This document shows, one piece after another, positions 11,481-57,072 of a DNA stretch of 64,000 nt (the first letter of the stretch is position 1; each line of letters begins with the position of its first letter). Source of the DNA: Escherichia coli. GTDB taxonomy: Bacteria; Pseudomonadota; Gammaproteobacteria; Enterobacterales; Enterobacteriaceae. Location of the stretch: assembly GCF_011045215.1 (NCBI RefSeq), contig NZ_CP049201.1, one strand, 5' to 3'. The notes below the pieces were generated by a model, which saw only the letters and a list, made by a program, of their open reading frames with translations, was not told the origin of the DNA and searched no databases. The position numbers and the translations under genes are program-made.

Positions 11481-11552
11481 GATCTGTATATTTGCTATAT
11501 ATCGATCGATACATCTGTCATATTGAGATTTTACAGATCTTTACTCTATAAT
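11481..11552 (+). promoter_or_regulatory. Putative T6SS operon promoter region with clustered GATC sites
   Basis: AT-rich 480-bp gap before tssB; TTGAGA (11523..11528) and TATAAT (11547..11552) with 18-bp spacing; GATC at 11481, 11504 and 11536 within 60 bp. Confidence 0.35.
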
Positions 11553-48555: not shown

Positions 48556-48816
48556 AATTTCCGCTGGTATAACAAACAGGGTTATGGATATTCTCGTTTA
48601 TGTGGAACATTCAGTTTGTATCGGAACTGGTAAGAACCTGACAGTTACATTCCCAATGTTTTATGGGGCTTCGGGGATATATATAATAGTTTATTGATAC
48701 ATGTTCTGTAGTTATACTGCGTATTCCGCTCTATTCGATCACGGATTTGCATCGAAGTCCGATCAGCGATTCGCATACTTTCGATCAACCGGGAACTTAA
48801 CTTTTTCTACCGCTTT

Positions 48817-49572
48817 TTAACTCGTTTTTTCGATGCTTTCCACTACCGGGGGGTTTTTCCTCAGGGACTCTCCCTGAAGGACCAGTCTGTGTGAGTTATG
48901 TACCAGTCTGTCCAGGATGGCATCTGCTGTTGTTGGGTTCTCCATCAGACCATGCCATTTATCTACCGGGAACTGGCTTACCACTATCGTGCTGCTTTGA
49001 CCGTAACGATCTTCTATGAGCTCCAGAAGGTCATTACACTGGGCGTTACTTAACTGTTCCAGCCCCAGATCGTCCAGGATTAGAACCTGTATTTTTTGCA
49101 ACTGTTTCAGATATTTCAGCCAGCTGCCATCAACACGTCCCTGAGCCAGTTGTTCCAGTAATCGCCCGGTTCTACAGTACCGGACGCTGTGTTTCTGTCG
49201 ACATGCCTGTTCGCCCAGCGCATTGGCTATCCAGCTCTTGCCACATCCTGTCGGACCGGTTATCAGCAGGTTTTTCCTGTGGGTTATGTAGTGGCCGTTC
49301 AGCAGTTCCCTCATCTGTTCAGCCCGCAGACCTCTTGAGGCCGGATAGCGCAGCCCTTCCGGTGTTGCCTGATATTTCAGGCCGGCATTTTTTCTCAACC
49401 GTGCCACACGGCTGTTTTCCCTGCTCAGAAGCTCGTCATCAACCAGCAGCGTCAGCCTTTCCTCGAACGACAGTTCGTCGTAGGTCTGAGGCGTTTCCCG
49501 CTGCCGTATCAGGCTCCCGGCCATCGCCGGGAGTTTCAGTTGGGTCAGTTTGTTTAACAGATTATCACTCAT
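48817..49572 (-). CDS. istB: IS21 helper ATPase IstB
   Basis: Start at ATG giving MSDNLLNKLTQ; Walker A GPTGCGKS and Walker B VLILDDLG; the ORF-track N-terminal extension is judged spurious. Confidence 0.85.
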   Translation of the reverse strand: MSDNLLNKLTQLKLPAMAGSLIRQRETPQTYDELSFEERLTLLVDDELLSRENSRVARLRKNAGLKYQATPEGLRYPASRGLRAEQMRELLNGHYITHRKNLLITGPTGCGKSWIANALGEQACRQKHSVRYCRTGRLLEQLAQGRVDGSWLKYLKQLQKIQVLILDDLGLEQLSNAQCNDLLELIEDRYGQSSTIVVSQFPVDKWHGLMENPTTADAILDRLVHNSHRLVLQGESLRKNPPVVESIEKTS

Positions 49573-49588
49573 TCGGTTGTTCCTTCTG

Positions 49589-51235
49589 TCAGTGGTAGTA
49601 GCCAGGACCACGCAGGTTTTCATGCTCTGAAGCATATGCCGGATGTTGTTCGCCCTGGCGGGATAACGGAAGCTCAACGTTATCCCGATGATGACGCAGC
49701 AGATTGTCGATAAAGCGTCTGTCCGGGGCGTTATAGTGCAGGGCAACGTAACAGGCCTTTTCCAGCCGTTCCGGGCCGTATTTTTTCTGAAGTGCCAGCA
49801 GACCCAGGACTGCACGGTAAGCCAGCTCCGGATGGGGTTTGGCTTTCAGCATGGATTCAACCACCCGGCCTGTGGACGGACCTGTACGGTTTCCCTGCTC
49901 GATAAGGCGTTCCGGTGTCCATGTCCCATGCCGCCGGTGGCGTTCTGGCATGTGAAGCGGATTGGTTGTGTGTTTATATTCATGTGTGCTGCGCGGATGT
50001 TGCGCCACACACTGCCCCTTGTGCCAGAGTTGTACCACCGACTGCCCCGCCTTCAGTGACAGACGCTGACCGACCAGTTCGTGTGGAACGGAGTACCAGT
50101 GACGGGCATATTCAACGTGATAGTCAGGGCCAACCTTCACGGCTTTGTATTCCGTGTATTCATAAGGTGCCAGAGGCAGCGGAGAGAGTGCTGGCGCATC
50201 CAGTATGCGGAAGCGTTCTGCACGGGTTTGATTGCCGTACCCCTTCATTGGCCGGTTATTCATGTCTGTCAGTAACTCCCGAAGGCGCGCATTCAGCGCC
50301 CTGAGCGTGTGGAAGGTTTCATTACGGATGCGGGCAAGAAGCCATCGTTCGACGATGAGGACGCCGTTTTCTGCTTTTGGTTTATCTTTAGGTTTGCGTG
50401 GTCGGGCCGGGATAATAACCGTGCCATAGTGCTCAGCCAGCGCCTGATAACTGTCGTTGATGACAGGCTCATAGCGATCGGCTTTTTTCACTGCGCTTCT
50501 GAGGTTATCGGGGATGAGCAGCTTCGGTACGCCGCCCAGGAAGGTCAGGCAACGGCTGTGGGCATTTAACCATGACATCATGTCCTGACCTTCGCACGCT
50601 TCAACATAGGTATAGTTGGACGCCCCCATTACAGCCACGAAGATTGCCACGCGGCGTATCTCTCCGGTGTCCGGATTAATAACAGGGACCGTAGGACCAC
50701 AGAAGTCGATAAAGAGCTTTTCGCCAGCACGATGCTCCTGTCGCATGGAGAGGCGTCGCGTTTTTTTCCACTTCCGGTAGCAACGGCAGAAGTGTGAGTA
50801 TCCCATCGCTTTGTCACCCGCCTGTGCCTTGTATTCCATCCACAACAGTTGGCGCGTCACGCCAGGTTTTCTCATTTCCGTATCGAAGTACAGCATGTCA
50901 GGCATAACAAGCTCCGACGCAGAGGTGTCTTTGGGCGGGTAAATGAGTTTCTCCAGCGTGTCATGGGATATATCAGCAGGTAATGGCCATGACAGAGAAG
51001 AGGCTTTGAAGCGTGCAAGAACCTCAAAAACGGTTGAGGCGCTGATGTGTAATGTCAGCCCGATACAACGGTTAGTCAGCTTCTGGTCGAACTTGAGCTG
51101 AAGGATCTTAAAACAGGTTTCCATAGTGCTCCTGGATTTTCTCTTTCTGGACATTGCCGTCTCCATTGGTTTAAACACGGCAATGAAGACTGTGGCGAAA
51201 AGAGTTAATTCCCGGAGTGACTGGCAGGATGCCAA
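49589..51235 (-). CDS. istA: IS21 transposase IstA
   Basis: 548-aa ORF upstream of and adjacent to istB; start codon uncertain within the first 40 codons. Confidence 0.85.
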   Translation of the reverse strand: MASCQSLRELTLFATVFIAVFKPMETAMSRKRKSRSTMETCFKILQLKFDQKLTNRCIGLTLHISASTVFEVLARFKASSLSWPLPADISHDTLEKLIYPPKDTSASELVMPDMLYFDTEMRKPGVTRQLLWMEYKAQAGDKAMGYSHFCRCYRKWKKTRRLSMRQEHRAGEKLFIDFCGPTVPVINPDTGEIRRVAIFVAVMGASNYTYVEACEGQDMMSWLNAHSRCLTFLGGVPKLLIPDNLRSAVKKADRYEPVINDSYQALAEHYGTVIIPARPRKPKDKPKAENGVLIVERWLLARIRNETFHTLRALNARLRELLTDMNNRPMKGYGNQTRAERFRILDAPALSPLPLAPYEYTEYKAVKVGPDYHVEYARHWYSVPHELVGQRLSLKAGQSVVQLWHKGQCVAQHPRSTHEYKHTTNPLHMPERHRRHGTWTPERLIEQGNRTGPSTGRVVESMLKAKPHPELAYRAVLGLLALQKKYGPERLEKACYVALHYNAPDRRFIDNLLRHHRDNVELPLSRQGEQHPAYASEHENLRGPGYYH

Positions 51236-51327
51236 TCAATGATCGGAAGCGTGCCAAATCGTGATCGATTGTGATGCCAAACTGTGATCGGAGATGGATG
51301 CCAAATCATGATCGATTCGAATGCCAA

Positions 51328-52817
51328 CATACCCTTACCCACAAGTTTTCTGGGCTATTTCTATGGCATTAATTGACAGCATTAATTGTGTTAATCCTGA
51401 CCATATAGTCTTAGGGCCTGGAGGCGAATCATTTTTTCTTGCCAGATATCCTCCTAATCTTGCAAGCATTAAAACCGCCGTTCTTATATTCGGTATGTTT
51501 TCAGGTGGAGGCGTATTCTCTACCAATATCCAGAGATACTCATATTCTTTCTTTTCGAAAATTAAATCACAGGGTTCCTCCGGAACCATTTTATACAATG
51601 AGCTAAGATAAAGTATTCTCCATGAGATTATAAGGTATAAGGCCAGACAGTTCCTTGTGCGTTCAAATGTCTCAAGTTGTAATTTCTCAACCTGACATCC
51701 GCTTTTTAATACCTTAAAGAAAACTTCAATCTGCCAGCGTAATAAATACCATTGAATAAGCTGTGCGGGTTCCGTCAGCTTTTCTGGAGGTACACTACTC
51801 ATTAGCCACCATACTAATGGCTGGACACTTTCTGGAGCATTTATTTCCTTTGCAAGTAATACAGTTACCGTTACCGGAGAACAACGTAACTTTCCTCTTC
51901 GACCGGTGGGTGGATGTAGCGTCAACCTTGCTAAGCGTAGCTCCTGCTGGACTTTGCGGGAAGGTTGTCCTCGTCCTTCCGGAAGGGTAAACTCAATTAT
52001 CTGCTGTGGCAAAATCTGCATCATTTTTTCATTCAGGAGTAATGAGTCTCTTTTTCCTGATGAATTCAGTATAGCCCGGTTAATGCTCTTCATTCTTACG
52101 AGCCAGTCAGCCTTTATCCCACTTTCATTTTCTGCACTCTCAAAGAGGTCGTAAATATCACCTTCACGGTCTGAAACAGAAATTATCTGGGTATCAGGAC
52201 AGGACCTAGCCAGTTCTGTTGCTTTTTTATATCCTTCTATCCACCGTCCTGTTTCTTTCTCACTGATATGTTTCCTGTGAAGTGAATCATTAGTTATTTC
52301 TTTACGACTTTGTTTCTGAGTTTTGAGTTCTTTTCTGAACCATTGATAATCATCATAAACCCCTAAGCAAATACCTGAATCACTTATAACCAATTGAGGG
52401 TGAATAAACAAATCTCGCTCATTTTCATGTCGTCTGGGACCGACGCCCTGTTTCTTTTTTTGACCAGAATAATTTAGTTCAGTCGTATCCTGTAAAACCA
52501 GAGCCCGTTTAAACTGTTTAGTCCTTTCGATGATATTTTTCTTATGGGGAGCCATGATTTTATCGGCTGAAATTTTATCACTGGAAAAGCAACGATAAGC
52601 AGCTTTTGTCTCACTCCAGGTACGGCAGGATACGGGAATACTTTCCTTTGGTGAACGGCTAAGCACACTGAGAACGTGCTTTATTCGCTTTTCGAGCCTG
52701 ATATCACCAACATTCAGAGATTCCAGCTCCTTAATAACCCAGTTTTCCATAGTTCCTCTAAATTATGGTTAATTTATCAACAGAATAACATCACTCGGAT
52801 TTATGGGTAAGGATATG
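51328..52817 (-). mobile_element. IS4-family (IS50-like) insertion sequence, copy B
   Basis: Inverted duplicate of 440..1929 with the same 14-bp terminal repeats and the same 9-bp flanking repeat (GAATGCCAA on this strand at 51319..51327 and 52818..52826). Confidence 0.75.
51335..52750 (-). CDS. IS4-family transposase (identical to 507..1922)
   Basis: Identical 471-aa translation to the copy at 507..1922. Confidence 0.85.
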   Translation of the reverse strand: MENWVIKELESLNVGDIRLEKRIKHVLSVLSRSPKESIPVSCRTWSETKAAYRCFSSDKISADKIMAPHKKNIIERTKQFKRALVLQDTTELNYSGQKKKQGVGPRRHENERDLFIHPQLVISDSGICLGVYDDYQWFRKELKTQKQSRKEITNDSLHRKHISEKETGRWIEGYKKATELARSCPDTQIISVSDREGDIYDLFESAENESGIKADWLVRMKSINRAILNSSGKRDSLLLNEKMMQILPQQIIEFTLPEGRGQPSRKVQQELRLARLTLHPPTGRRGKLRCSPVTVTVLLAKEINAPESVQPLVWWLMSSVPPEKLTEPAQLIQWYLLRWQIEVFFKVLKSGCQVEKLQLETFERTRNCLALYLIISWRILYLSSLYKMVPEEPCDLIFEKKEYEYLWILVENTPPPENIPNIRTAVLMLARLGGYLARKNDSPPGPKTIWSGLTQLMLSINAIEIAQKTCG

Positions 52818-53658
52818 GAATGCCAAACCGTGATCGATTCAGATGCCATTTTGCAGTTATACACTATTGAGTATTATATTGTTATGAAAATATCTGTACT
52901 TATGGAATATTTAATTCTGATGATGGGGCTCTGGTTTGTTGTATGGTTAATTACGGACTGGTTACCTCATATCTGACGGAAAGTGGTATCAGTGTGTATT
53001 CGCATTGACCGGACATCGACATATAACGAATTACGTTCCGGACAAAACTCTCCTGCAGGAAAGGGTAACATTGTATTTTAAACATATTATTCAACCAGTC
53101 ATAAGCATAAACCGACCGCCGTATGTAGCCATTAAGCCAGTATTGGTAACGAAGATACCCACCTTTTCAAAAAGGAAGTGGATAAAAGATAACGAAAATG
53201 CGAAGAGTTGATTAATACATTGAAACAAAATTCATTAATGATGAACTTGGAGAAAAGCTCCATCAAAATACGACACGACCTGTCGTAATTTGTGTTAGCC
53301 AGGAAAGAATATCTACTACTCACTAAAATGATTTAGTGCTGAAAATATTTACAAGCCAATAAATTGACTGGTATTACGGAGTAACGCCCAGGCTATGTTA
53401 ACGAACCCGCTGTTTTATTGGCTCAAAAAACATATCCCAGAGATGTTCAGCCATACCCTCGTTAGTGAGCAAGGTATCCCCTTAGTAGCCAGGGCTGAAG
53501 ATGCCCATTGATGGGCGAAAACCAAGGATCTGGCCGTTAGAACAGTTATGTCGTTAAACACATCACCACCATATGCCATCCGGTTCACTTCGTCGGCCAA
53601 ATTAGTGTGATATTCTTTCCAGAAATGCTGTTGTATCCACGACATAAGGCGATGATTG

Positions 53659-56600
53659 ATGGAGCAGTCTCTCAATTTTGAAATGTTGCGCAGCCAGTGG
53701 CCGGAACTGGCTGAACTCGCGTGTATGGCGGAACGCTATGTTCACTCCGATCCGGAAAGCTGTCTGGTCAAGCTGCGCAACTACACCGAATTGATGGTGC
53801 GCTGGTTGTATCGTCAGGAGCGGTTGCCGGAAGGTATTAAGGCTAATCTTTACGATTTAATGAATGCTGATGTCTTTACCAGCATGATGCCGGAAGCCAT
53901 CATCATGAAAATGGATGCGCTGCGTATCCATGGCAACCGTGCCGCGCACGGCGGACATATCAAAGCTAAAGATACTTACTGGCTGCTCAAAGAAGCGTAT
54001 TTGTTGGGAATTTGGCTGTATGTTCGCTACGCCCACGGTAATGTTGATGACTGCCCCAAATTTACACTCCCTCCATTAACACAATCTTCAGGTCGTGCAG
54101 ATGAAAAACGTCTGGAAGATGCAATCAGGGCTCAGGATGAAAGCCGTGAGCGCGAACTGGCGCTGCAACGCGCACTACAGCAAGAACAGGAAAAGGCCGA
54201 ACACCTCACTCAACGCCTGAATGAAGCCAGAGCGCGTAACCAGCATGTTGCCGATATTCTCTCTATTGATGAAGCGGAAACCCGCCGTCGCCTGATTGAC
54301 TCTCGCCTGCTTGCTGCTGACTGGAATGTAGGCGAAGACCTTAAAAATACCGATCAGGTTACGCAGGAACATCCCGTTAAAGAACAACCTACCGCGACCG
54401 GAGACGGTTATGCGGACTATGTCTTGTGGGATGAGGCACACAAACCGCTGGCGGTGGTGGAAGCAAAAAAAACCAGCGTCAATGCCGAGCAAGGACGAAT
54501 TCAGGCCCGGCTGTATGCAGACTGGCTGGAAAAAGAATACGGCCAGCGTCCGATCATCTTCTACACCAACGGCTATGATATCTGGCTGTGGGATGACCAT
54601 AAAACTCATGGTTATCCCCCGCGTCGGGTGTTTGGCTTCTACAGCAAGGAAAGCCTGCAATATCTTATTCAACAGCGTGAAACCCGTCTGCCGCTGAACA
54701 ATGTGCTGCACGTAAAGGATAACGAAGGTAAGGCCGTTGCCGGACGTTTGTACCAGCTTGAAACCATTGCTCGTGTCAGCGAACGGTTTACCAATAAATA
54801 TCGTCAGTCATTAATCGTTCAGGCCACCGGCACCGGTAAAACCCGTGTAGCGATTACACTGAGCAAACTGATGATAGATGCCCGCTGGGTAAAACGCGTC
54901 CTGTTTCTTTGTGACCGCAAGGAATTACGTAAACAGGCGGCGAATGCCTTTAATCAATTCACCAATGAGCCGCTGTATGTAGTTGGAAAATCGAAAAAAG
55001 CAGACAGGCAGAACGCCAGGATCTACATCGCCACCTATCCAGGCATGATGAAAATCATGGACCATTTCGATGTCGGTTATTTCGATTTGATCATCGCCGA
55101 TGAATCCCACCGCTCTATCTACAACGTCTACGGCGATCTGTTTAAGTATTTTGATGCCCTCCAGATTGGCCTGACGGCCACGCCGATTGACATGGTAAGT
55201 AAAACCACTTTCGGCCTGTTTGGTTGTGAAGGACGTATTCCTACCGCCAACTACAGCCTGGAAGATGCCATCGCCGATAACAATCTGGTTCCCTATGAGG
55301 TTGTCACGCACACCACAGAATTCCTGCGGGAAGGCATCAAACGGGAGAAATTAAGCGACGCACAAATCCGCGAGCTGGAAGAACAAGGCATAGATCCCAA
55401 TACGCTGGAGTTTGATGGCAAGGTGCTGGATGAGGCGATCTACAACAAAGACACCAACCGCTATATCCTGCGTAACCTGATGGAAAATGGCCTGAAAGAT
55501 CGGGACGGCCAGTTGCCAGGTAAAACCATCATTTTCGCCCGTAACCACAAACACGCGCTGCTGTTGAATGAATTGTTCGACGATATGTACCCACAGTTTG
55601 CCGGGCGCTTCTGCTAGGTCATCGACAATTACGATCCCCGTGCCGAGCAACTGATTGATGATTTTAAAGGGCTGGATGAAAGCACCAACAAAGAGCTGAC
55701 CATCGCTATCTCCGTTGACATGCTCGATACCGGTATTGATGTCCCGGAAATTGTGAATCTGGTCTTTGCCAAACCGGTCAAATCAAAAGTGAAGTTCTGG
55801 CAGATGATTGGCCGTGGTACGCGCCTCTGTCCGGGGTTGTACGGTTACGACGATAACGGCAAGCCGCTGGATAAACAGAAATTCCGCATTTTCGATCACT
55901 GGGGCAATTTTGAGTATCACGAACTGCATACCGAAGAGGCCGAAGTCACAGCGACAAAATCGCTTGCACAAAAACGCTTCGAAGCGTGGGTTATGCTGGG
56001 GGCCGCTGCGCAACGTAAATTCGACAAACAGGCGGTGGATTTAGTTGCTCACCAGCTTCGCGAGCAAATCAACGCACTGGATGAAAAGTCGATTGCCGTA
56101 CAGGAAAAGTGGCAGCAAAAAGCGCAGTACAGTGATGCAAAGGTGCTGCGCCAGCTTTCTCCGAAAACACAGCAGGATCTGCTATCTGTTCTGGCCCCGC
56201 TGATGCAGTGGCTGGACGTACGCGGGCAAAGCGATGCCATACGCTTTGATATGGATATTCTGGCGGCGCAAACTGCCCGTTATACCAACCCGGAAGAGCT
56301 GGATGTGCTCTGGCCGGTCATCGTCGAAAAAGTGGAGCGCCTGCCGTCGCATTTGGCGCAGGTGCAACAGCAGGGACAGCGAATCAATCAGCTTCGTGAT
56401 TTGGGCTGGTGGAAGCAAGCCAGTCTGGAAGAGCTGGAGGATATCCGCATTCATTTGCGCGGTATCATGCACCTGATGGAAAAAGACGCGACGCCGAAAT
56501 TTGGTTCTATACAGGTGGATATTACCGAAGATGCGAACCTGATCCAGACGGAAACCCGCAAAACCAACATTCGCTCGATTGATTTCAAACTCTATCGCCA

Positions 56601-57072
56601 GCAGGTTCAGGGGGCACTGGAGCCGCTGTTCCAGCAAAATCCGGTGCTGAAGAAAATCCGCAACGGCGAGCCAGTCACGCAAAACGAGCTGGATGAACTG
56701 GCGAAGCTGGTGCTGATCCAGAACCCCAACGTTGATATCCGGGCACTGAAAGAGTTCTATCCGCAGGCAACCGCCAGCCTGGATAAACTTTTGCGTACCA
56801 TCATCGGGATGGACAGCGACGCGGTGGAAGTGCGCTTTGCTCAGTTCGCCGCTGATAACAGTCTGACCAGCCAACAACTGCGCTTCCTGTCATTGCTGAA
56901 AAACCACATTCGCGATTACGGCACCATTGAAATGCGGCAGCTCTTTGAACAGCCTTTTACGCATATCCACAACGAAGGCGTTACCGGTGTGTTCCCTGAT
57001 ATAGAGCAGATCGCCCGCCTGCAAAAGATAGTCGAAGAGCTGGGTGTTGTGACCGACGTAGCGACGGTATAA
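53659..57072 (+). pseudogene. hsdR: Type I restriction enzyme R subunit HsdR, interrupted by an in-frame TAG at 55615..55617
   Basis: ORFs 53656..55617 and 55720..57072 are in the same frame and the codons between them read on as HsdR (VIDNYDPRAEQLIDDFKGLDE...); helicase motifs QATGTGKT (Walker A), DESH, FWQMIGRGTRL present; likely a CAG to TAG change. Confidence 0.8.

Follow-up and report, generated by a model that had tools for sequence, protein, structure and literature searches.

Why should an insertion sequence (IS) of one family lie exactly between two terminal repeats of another, and did it arrive there by chance? The question is raised by a 64,000-nucleotide stretch of Escherichia coli DNA (contig NZ_CP049201.1 of assembly GCF_011045215.1; hereafter the window), in which a 1490-bp Tn5-like element of the IS4 family (51328-52817, minus strand) splits the end of a copy of ISSso4, an element of the IS21 family (48718-52855, minus strand). 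Identical copies of the Tn5-like element occupy the same 9-bp sequence in four diverged ISSso4 copies, and its relatives down to about 48% protein identity sit in the terminal repeat arrays of other IS21-type elements, with the tetranucleotide GATC at a nearly constant distance from almost every junction. Judged from these natural copies, the nesting looks like target choice rather than chance.

Two insertions and their empty sites

ISSso4 is bordered directly outside both termini by GTTATAC (48711-48717 and 52856-52862), which a first-pass annotation of the window had taken for a genuine 7-bp target-site duplication, proposing comparison with an empty site in a related genome. Such a site exists: a query made by joining 600 bp of each flank and keeping one copy of the 7-mer matched E. 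coli C5 (NZ_CP010122) in one piece, over all 1200 bp and at 99.3% identity. The uninterrupted C5 junction reads ...CATGTTCTGTAGTTATACACTATTGAG..., with (A)GTTATAC present once; apart from the insertion, C5 and the window remain collinear across about 7.7 kb to its left and about 5.9 kb to its right. At the window site alone the duplication is also readable as 8 bp (AGTTATAC), were the element to end in ...GC; since a copy in strain 357900, with CCCTGAC on both sides, fits only ends of the form TGC...GCA, the window duplication is 7 bp. That length is typical for ISSso4, other copies of which are flanked by duplications of 7 bp (CCCTGAC, GCCTGAG and CCACACT) or 6 bp (GTCCCG and ATGCTG), and it falls within the 4-8 bp of the IS21 family.

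The Tn5-like element has a duplication of its own, a perfect 9-bp repeat of GAATGCCAA (TTGGCATTC on the other strand; a GAATCCCAA-type 9-mer), with its inner copy at 51319-51327 and its outer copy at 52818-52826. It lies between L1 and L2, two repeats at the istA-proximal (left) end of ISSso4. Five uninterrupted ISSso4 copies carry a single GAATGCCAA at the boundary of L1 and L2, which is thus the empty site of the nested element. Neither duplication is a chance repeat, given the single GTTATAC in C5 and the single GAATGCCAA in these five copies.

The order of events can be read from how the two elements have diverged. When the composite of the window (the Tn5-like element within ISSso4) was compared with that of strain 357900, the nested elements differed at 0 of 1490 positions, the ISSso4 bodies at 65 of 2610 and the ISSso4 tips at 2 of 38. 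More generally, the host ISSso4 variants differ pairwise at 45-136 positions. The nested element is 100% identical in four diverged ISSso4 copies, against host differences of up to 2.5%, which indicates late and independent arrivals, each at the same 9-mer. In vitro, the IstA transposase of the IS21-family element IS5376 depends on a pair of complete direct repeats at each end, adjacent to one another and at 23-bp spacing (PMC10122671). Because L1 and L2 are now 1.5 kb apart, the left end of ISSso4 should be unusable by IstA, and ISSso4 should consequently have come first. The sequences thus support, as the best reading, the order put forward in the first-pass annotation, with the IS21-family element first and the IS4-type element second.

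Recurrence at one 9-mer

A second nest of the same kind lies at the start of the window, on the plus strand (402-2342), where an identical Tn5-like element is found inside a fourth ISSso4 copy. It comprises the ISSso4 left-end tip (402-430), TTGGCATTC (431-439), the element (440-1929, 100% identical to 51328-52817, with its transposase gene at 507-1922 on the plus strand), TTGGCATTC again (1930-1938) and an ISSso4 body of only 413 bp, which ends at 2342 where it is cut by an IS66-like end. Its ISSso4 tip and flank differ from those of the nest at 48718-52855; the two nests are inverted relative to each other, with about 46 kb between them. The first-pass annotation had overlooked both this nest and what appears to be a recurrent, phase-specific target preference.

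Further identical copies of the nested element occur in E. coli C5, 52F4, 357900 and Ceylon31. In C5 (locus L004, 4958-6540 in NZ_CP010122) and 52F4 (L005) it has the same outer junction in the opposite orientation, within a third ISSso4 variant. The C5 nest has TTGGCATTC as its outer flank and TTGGCATCA as its inner flank, with 46 bp, or two repeat units, missing, a structure consistent with a slipped deletion or with recombination between one copy at L1|L2 and another at L3|L4. In strain 357900, the internal junction, 9-bp duplication and orientation are those of the window, and the host ISSso4 lies inside ISEc8 with the 7-bp duplication CCCTGAC. Insertions that arrived independently have thus recurred at one sequence and in one phase of another element's end, the same 9-mer being occupied in four diverged ISSso4 copies. 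The nested element is rare: matches to it were found in 79 of 5426 complete E. coli genomes and were near full length in 45.

An older nest, 96.9% identical, is present beside the afa/dra adhesin operon in the pheV island of E. coli VR50 (L002) and in about 30 other genomes, including sequence type 131 (ST131); in this nest ISSso4 breaks off inside istA and is joined to IS66 sequence, and further-decayed remnants occupy the same position in other strains (L007). The window start is itself a pile-up of nested insertion sequences (IS66, ISSso4 and IS4), with two copies of one IS66-like left end (GTAATGTTCCGGGGACCTCATCTT..., followed by a tnpA-like start) at about 77-400 and at 2343-2500. The first is broken by the ISSso4 tip at 402, and the second cuts the ISSso4 body at 2342/2343. 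No tRNA genes were detected in the window by a scan that asked whether the second nest is flanked by the 3' end of a tRNA.

Relatives in IS21-type ends and the phase of GATC

Relatives of the nested transposase were traced into their contigs (percentages are protein identities). An 84% relative from a metagenome lies inside an ISSso4-like array with a perfect 9-bp duplication, and a 78% relative on E. marmotae pEM148 has an end that abuts TTGGCATCC, the innermost ISSso4-like repeat upstream of istA. In bog metagenomes, a 57% relative lies among the terminal repeats of an IS21-type element that encodes an IstA just 37% identical to that of ISSso4; it takes up no fewer than three positions of that array, and both orientations are represented. 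Relatives at 62, 60, 55, 52, 50 and 48% lie in arrays that start TGCGTATTC, TGCGCATTC, TGCATATTC or TGCGTTTTAC and contain CGATCA repeats, one of them in an istB-distal end. The istA and istB homologues adjoined by the metagenome relatives (84-48%) are of only 37-41% identity. The association with IS21 was not seen at 40-45%: P0107 (40%) lies beside unrelated genes and P0035 (45%) abuts an IS3-like end. As the 45% and 40% relatives are outside IS21 ends, the behaviour seems to mark a clade that extends down to about 48% identity.

Three observations concern more distant members. A 45% relative on a metagenome contig (L021, 2939-4426) has a clean 9-bp duplication, CCGTTTTAG, and lies directly against the end of an IS3-family element (TGGACACAC...), a hint of a possible preference, among more distant members, for the ends of other insertion sequences. 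On another contig (L038, about 100-145), two ends of a 42%-related element stand head to head, only 8 bp (GTCTAGAC) apart. The inverted repeats of that same element recur at L043 (463-681) as a 219-bp pair without a transposase, resembling a miniature inverted-repeat transposable element (MITE) and placed inside a perfect palindrome.

Read toward the element, GATC stands 12-14 nt from the junction in almost every flank, and with 9-bp duplications the distance is exactly 14 nt. From these flanks the target can be reconstructed as GATC-N5-[duplication]-N5-GATC, a form recovered cleanly at locus L034 as GATC ATCTT [TATGTGGCT] TTGTC GATC. Within the ISSso4 left end, a spacing of 19 nt between GATC cores occurs only at L1-L2 and L3-L4, and L1|L2 is the site that is repeatedly occupied. 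For a less biased sample, we scanned a metagenome collection with the conserved 20-nt end of the nested element. GATC was found at 12-14 nt in 9 of 14 distinct flanks, compared with an expected share of about 1% by chance, or about 15% under random insertion into an array with 23-bp phasing; the five remaining flanks belong to lineages at 38-43% identity or to ends without a transposase. A search with a 27-nt IS end gave no match among one genome per species and is uninformative on other species.

A proposed target preference and its alternatives

Two successive transpositions, the second guided by a target preference, account for this locus with high probability in our judgement. ISSso4, through IstA and IstB, would have entered a genomic island of E. 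coli, between genes, and duplicated the 7 bp GTTATAC. The 1490-bp Tn5-like element would then have moved by cut and paste into L1|L2 of the ISSso4 left end, duplicating the 9 bp TTGGCATTC. Its clade is proposed to prefer YGATCR-N4/5-[7-9 bp duplicated]-N5-YGATCR, in which the GATC cores are about 23 bp apart centre to centre and the staggered cuts would fall at equal distances from the two. In this branch of the IS21 family the required geometry would be provided by the tandem IstA-binding repeats of 21-24 bp, which would account for the repeated nesting in IS21-type ends. We infer that a dimer of the transposase recognizes the paired GATC cores directly. The insertion would also inactivate ISSso4, immobilizing the host element, since a left end with L1 and L2 split is most likely disabled if IstA needs two adjacent repeats per end. 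To the stronger proposition that the Tn5-like clade (at least about 48% identity) has evolved stringent symmetric recognition of GATC half-sites 23 bp apart, and may act as a hyperparasite that disables IS21-family elements, we give evenly balanced credence.

Several points weigh against a preference for paired GATC cores. The specificity is deduced solely from natural copies, and the GATC phasing is confounded with position inside an IS21 array; in the one case outside IS21 ends, the 45% relative at L021, just one of the flanks has a GATC at 14 nt. Nor is a pair of GATC cores sufficient by itself: no insertion occupies the GATC-N19-GATC sites at window positions 11481, 1968 and 51263, and other determinants must therefore play a part, whether the repeat sequence or a bound protein such as IstA or SeqA/Dam. 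The right flanks of L009 and L023 have no GATC, and in some relatives the duplication appears to be 7-8 bp and not 9 bp. The ISSso4 left end contains five to six repeats, and the effect of splitting L1 from L2 is extrapolated from the IS5376 in vitro data. Finally, the nested element may already have an ISfinder name and a recorded target preference; we found no report of an association between Tn5-like elements and IS21 ends in the literature on ISSso4, on IS21 and IS4 nesting or hotspots, and in an IS4-family review, which is weak evidence of novelty.

The unoccupied sites bear on the alternative that target choice is real but is steered by a protein bound to the repeats, which could be IstA, through bending or supercoiling of the array, or SeqA/Dam, through phased GATCs in the hemimethylated state. 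IS10 and IS50 are regulated by Dam, and SeqA binds phased GATC pairs. In favour of such guidance, no insertion is seen at bare GATC-N19-GATC sites away from IS21 ends, and IstA wraps repeats spaced by 23 bp into superhelical crossings (PMC10122671). However, insertions are also found in truncated IS21 remnants without istA, and the 45% relative has its GATC at 14 nt beside an IS3-like end, leaving guidance by a bound protein a credible but unlikely explanation.

The junction in strain 357900, with its different 7-bp duplication, first suggested to us that the Tn5-like element had entered ISSso4 elsewhere and that the 4138-bp composite had then moved into the window as a unit. The same internal junction, 9-bp duplication and orientation do occur in other contexts with other 7-bp duplications (CCCTGAC within ISEc8 in 357900), and in bog metagenomes one IS4-IS21 junction precedes several different downstream contexts. 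Yet elements travelling jointly should have accumulated about 37 differences in the nested element, against the 0 of 1490 observed beside 65 of 2610 in ISSso4, and it was this split that led us to reject the idea. Moreover, IstA needs L1 and L2 to be adjacent on an end (PMC10122671), and no composite with the ISSso4 variant of the window was found among the 5426 E. coli genomes. We consider movement as a unit improbable.

Insertion of the Tn5-like element could instead be nearly random, with copies persisting solely in neutral locations ('safe havens'), other insertion sequences among them. Such nesting is frequent in IS-rich islands, as in the pile-up at the window start, and relatives below 45% identity occur elsewhere. 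Survival of this kind does not predict that identical copies should take the same 9-mer at least four times, and random insertion in a 23-bp array would give a uniform distribution of distances, whereas GATC is held at 12-14 nt on both flanks across approximately 16-18 distinct sites. In addition, equally neutral IS66, IS3 and IS1 copies in the same genomes are not targeted. Selective survival after random insertion is thus, in our estimation, a shade less probable even than joint movement.

Least probable of all is that a single ancestral nesting spread among ISSso4 copies by homologous recombination or gene conversion with no target preference, because, although a multi-copy ISSso4 offers recombination partners, the homology on the tip side is only 38 bp, variant-specific bases persist 3 and 5 bp past the duplication (52829 and 52831) and 76 bp from the inner junction, and neither the inverted copy in C5 nor the 48-84% relatives in unrelated IS21-type elements, with different repeat boundaries and the same GATC phase, would be explained.

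Relation to known elements

An ISSso4 copy with a nested insertion sequence is ordinary mobile-element anatomy; the phased landing of a Tn5-like clade between IstA-binding repeats is the added observation. Tn5 insertion shows only a weak sequence preference, in contrast to the apparent strong bias of this clade toward paired GATC cores in the end repeats of IS21-type elements. The closest behaviour is that of IS231A, an IS4-family element of the IS231 subgroup, which Hallet et al. (1991, 1994; works cited in PMC6199540) are said to have found targeting the terminal inverted repeats of Tn4430. Both are IS4-family elements that favour, or in the present case appear to favour, a target within the terminus of a different transposable element, and in both the target consensus is symmetric about the duplication. 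The nested element differs from IS231A in its subgroup, in a host of the IS21 and not the Tn3 family, and in a GATC-N19-GATC pattern in place of the GGG-N5-CCC with bent flanks of IS231A. A looser likeness exists to IS4321 and IS5075 (IS1111 family), which home to the 38-bp inverted repeats of Tn21-family transposons and disable them. These too specialize on the ends of another transposon, but they have a DEDD transposase, insert in one orientation and create no target duplication.

If the preference is real, the nested element would stand as a rare example of sequence-directed insertion in a transposase family whose reputation and laboratory use otherwise depend on insertion that is close to random. 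Confirmation would make it a second IS4-family specialist on the ends of another transposon, after IS231A and Tn4430, and a clear case of one mobile element disabling another, as well as a natural starting point for understanding and engineering target selectivity in Tn5-type transposases. For annotation, the target rule would explain the recurrent pairing of ISSso4 with Tn5-like elements, and nested ISSso4 copies are probably immobile.

Anatomy and identity of the two elements

The interrupted ISSso4 spans 4138 bp in total and 2639 bp once 51328-52826 is removed, matching the uninterrupted lengths of 2639 bp on plasmid pRM13745-2 and 2638 bp on S. sonnei pINV and on E. albertii and E. coli plasmids. 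It starts TGCGTATTCC and finishes ...CCATTTTGCA, with termini TGC...GCA, and is 97.5-98.4% identical to annotated ISSso4 copies. Megablast against complete E. coli genomes and plasmids matched hundreds of copies labelled 'IS21-like element ISSso4 family' by the Prokaryotic Genome Annotation Pipeline (PGAP); per complete genome, the median number of places was 1 and the maximum 33. Two intact genes are encoded on the minus strand: istB (48817-49572; a helper AAA+ ATPase of 251 aa; NF038214, 257 bits against a cutoff of 200) and istA (49589-51124; an IS21-family transposase of 511 aa; NF033546, 287 bits against a cutoff of 160). They are separated by 16 bp, with istA, which encodes a helix-turn-helix plus DDE transposase, first, as in the IS21 gene order. 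Compared with the S. sonnei pINV proteins, IstA is identical at 507 of 511 residues and IstB at 244 of 251, and neither has an internal stop.

ISSso4 has a repeat array at each end, as the first-pass annotation had described for the TGC termini with their inverted multi-copy arrays. The units are 22-24 bp long (TGGCAT-N-CGATCA); the istA-proximal array has five to six of them and the istB-distal array has three. The istB-distal, or right-end, array (48718-48793, minus strand) comprises R1-R3, with CGATCA cores whose GATC lies at element positions 20, 44 and 66. At the left end, the inner part of the array (51227-51327, minus strand) contains L2 (51304-51326), L3 (51280-51303), L4 (51257-51279), L5 (51235-51256) and a partial L6 (51227-51234). 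The terminal 29 bp (52827-52855, minus strand), made up of the tip and L1, are cut off from L2-L6 by the nested element. Left-end GATC cores are at element positions 21, 44, 68, 91 and 113. Ends of the form TG...CA with several direct repeats each, about 23 bp apart, are what is found here, and multiple direct repeats per end are described as a feature of the IS21 family (PMC10122671). By all of these defining features the outer element is a complete ISSso4, an IS21-family member and not IS21 itself, which narrows the 'complete IS21' of the first-pass annotation. It shares about 97.5% nucleotide identity with ISSso4 of Shigella sonnei pINV and of E. coli and E. albertii plasmids and chromosomes, together with equivalent length, ends, genes, multi-repeat termini and duplications of 6-7 bp; the window copy is a sequence variant, with 67 differences from the S. 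sonnei copy, and is split between L1 and L2.

The nested element was likewise recognized in the first-pass annotation, as a 1490-bp IS4-family element in the left-end array with a 9-bp duplication of its own. The 14-bp terminal inverted repeats attributed to it are present (CATAYCCTTACCCA; 51328-51344 and 52801-52817) but imperfect, the ends CATACCCTTACCCA and CATATCCTTACCCA matching at 13 of 14 or 15 of 17 positions. Its single gene product of 471 aa, a Tn5-like DDE transposase (51335-52750, minus strand), is intact and scores 347 bits with NF033590 (cutoff 160); precomputed Pfam matches to an identical protein (P0001) comprise Tnp_DNA_bind (PF14706), DDE_Tnp_1 (PF01609) and Dimer_Tnp_Tn5 (PF02281). 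The protein aligns to solved Tn5 transposase structures (E = 2e-25), with DDE and Y-x2-R-x3-E-x6-K in place in the segments LQDTTEL, VSDREGDI and YLLRWQIEVFFKVLK. The IS50 subgroup is defined by a size of 1350-1550 bp, ends CW------Y---CA-A--W- and a duplication of 8-9 bp (PMC2266710, Table 1), and CATACCCTTACCCACAAGTT satisfies all specified positions of this end consensus. On these sequence features the nested element is a member of the IS50/Tn5 subgroup of the IS4 family, with a genuine 9-bp duplication. With IS50 and Tn5 it shares transposase domains, catalytic residues, the 9-bp duplication and the end consensus, at a length of 1490 bp; its transposase has only about 22% protein identity to that of IS50R. 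Homology to the Tn5 transposase suggests that it moves by cut and paste via hairpin intermediates.

PGAP labels the nested transposase generically as 'IS4 family transposase', and the element is probably unnamed. One candidate name, ISSfl1, an IS4-family name that stands beside ISSso4 in a C. rodentium table, was rejected because the published primers and homology arms match nowhere in the window when up to 4 mismatches are allowed.

The genomic context of the insertion

ISSso4 lies in an intergenic position within a genomic island, between a gene for a helix-turn-helix protein on one side and a DEAD/DEAH helicase gene on the other, the latter heading a type I restriction-modification locus. 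This hsdR-like gene, downstream of the insertion (53656-57072), is a single coding sequence of 1121 aa in E. coli C5. In the window an in-frame TAG at 55615-55617, with no insertion or deletion, divides it into open reading frames at 53656-55617 and 55720-57072, and the restriction-modification locus may be inactive as a result of this stop codon.

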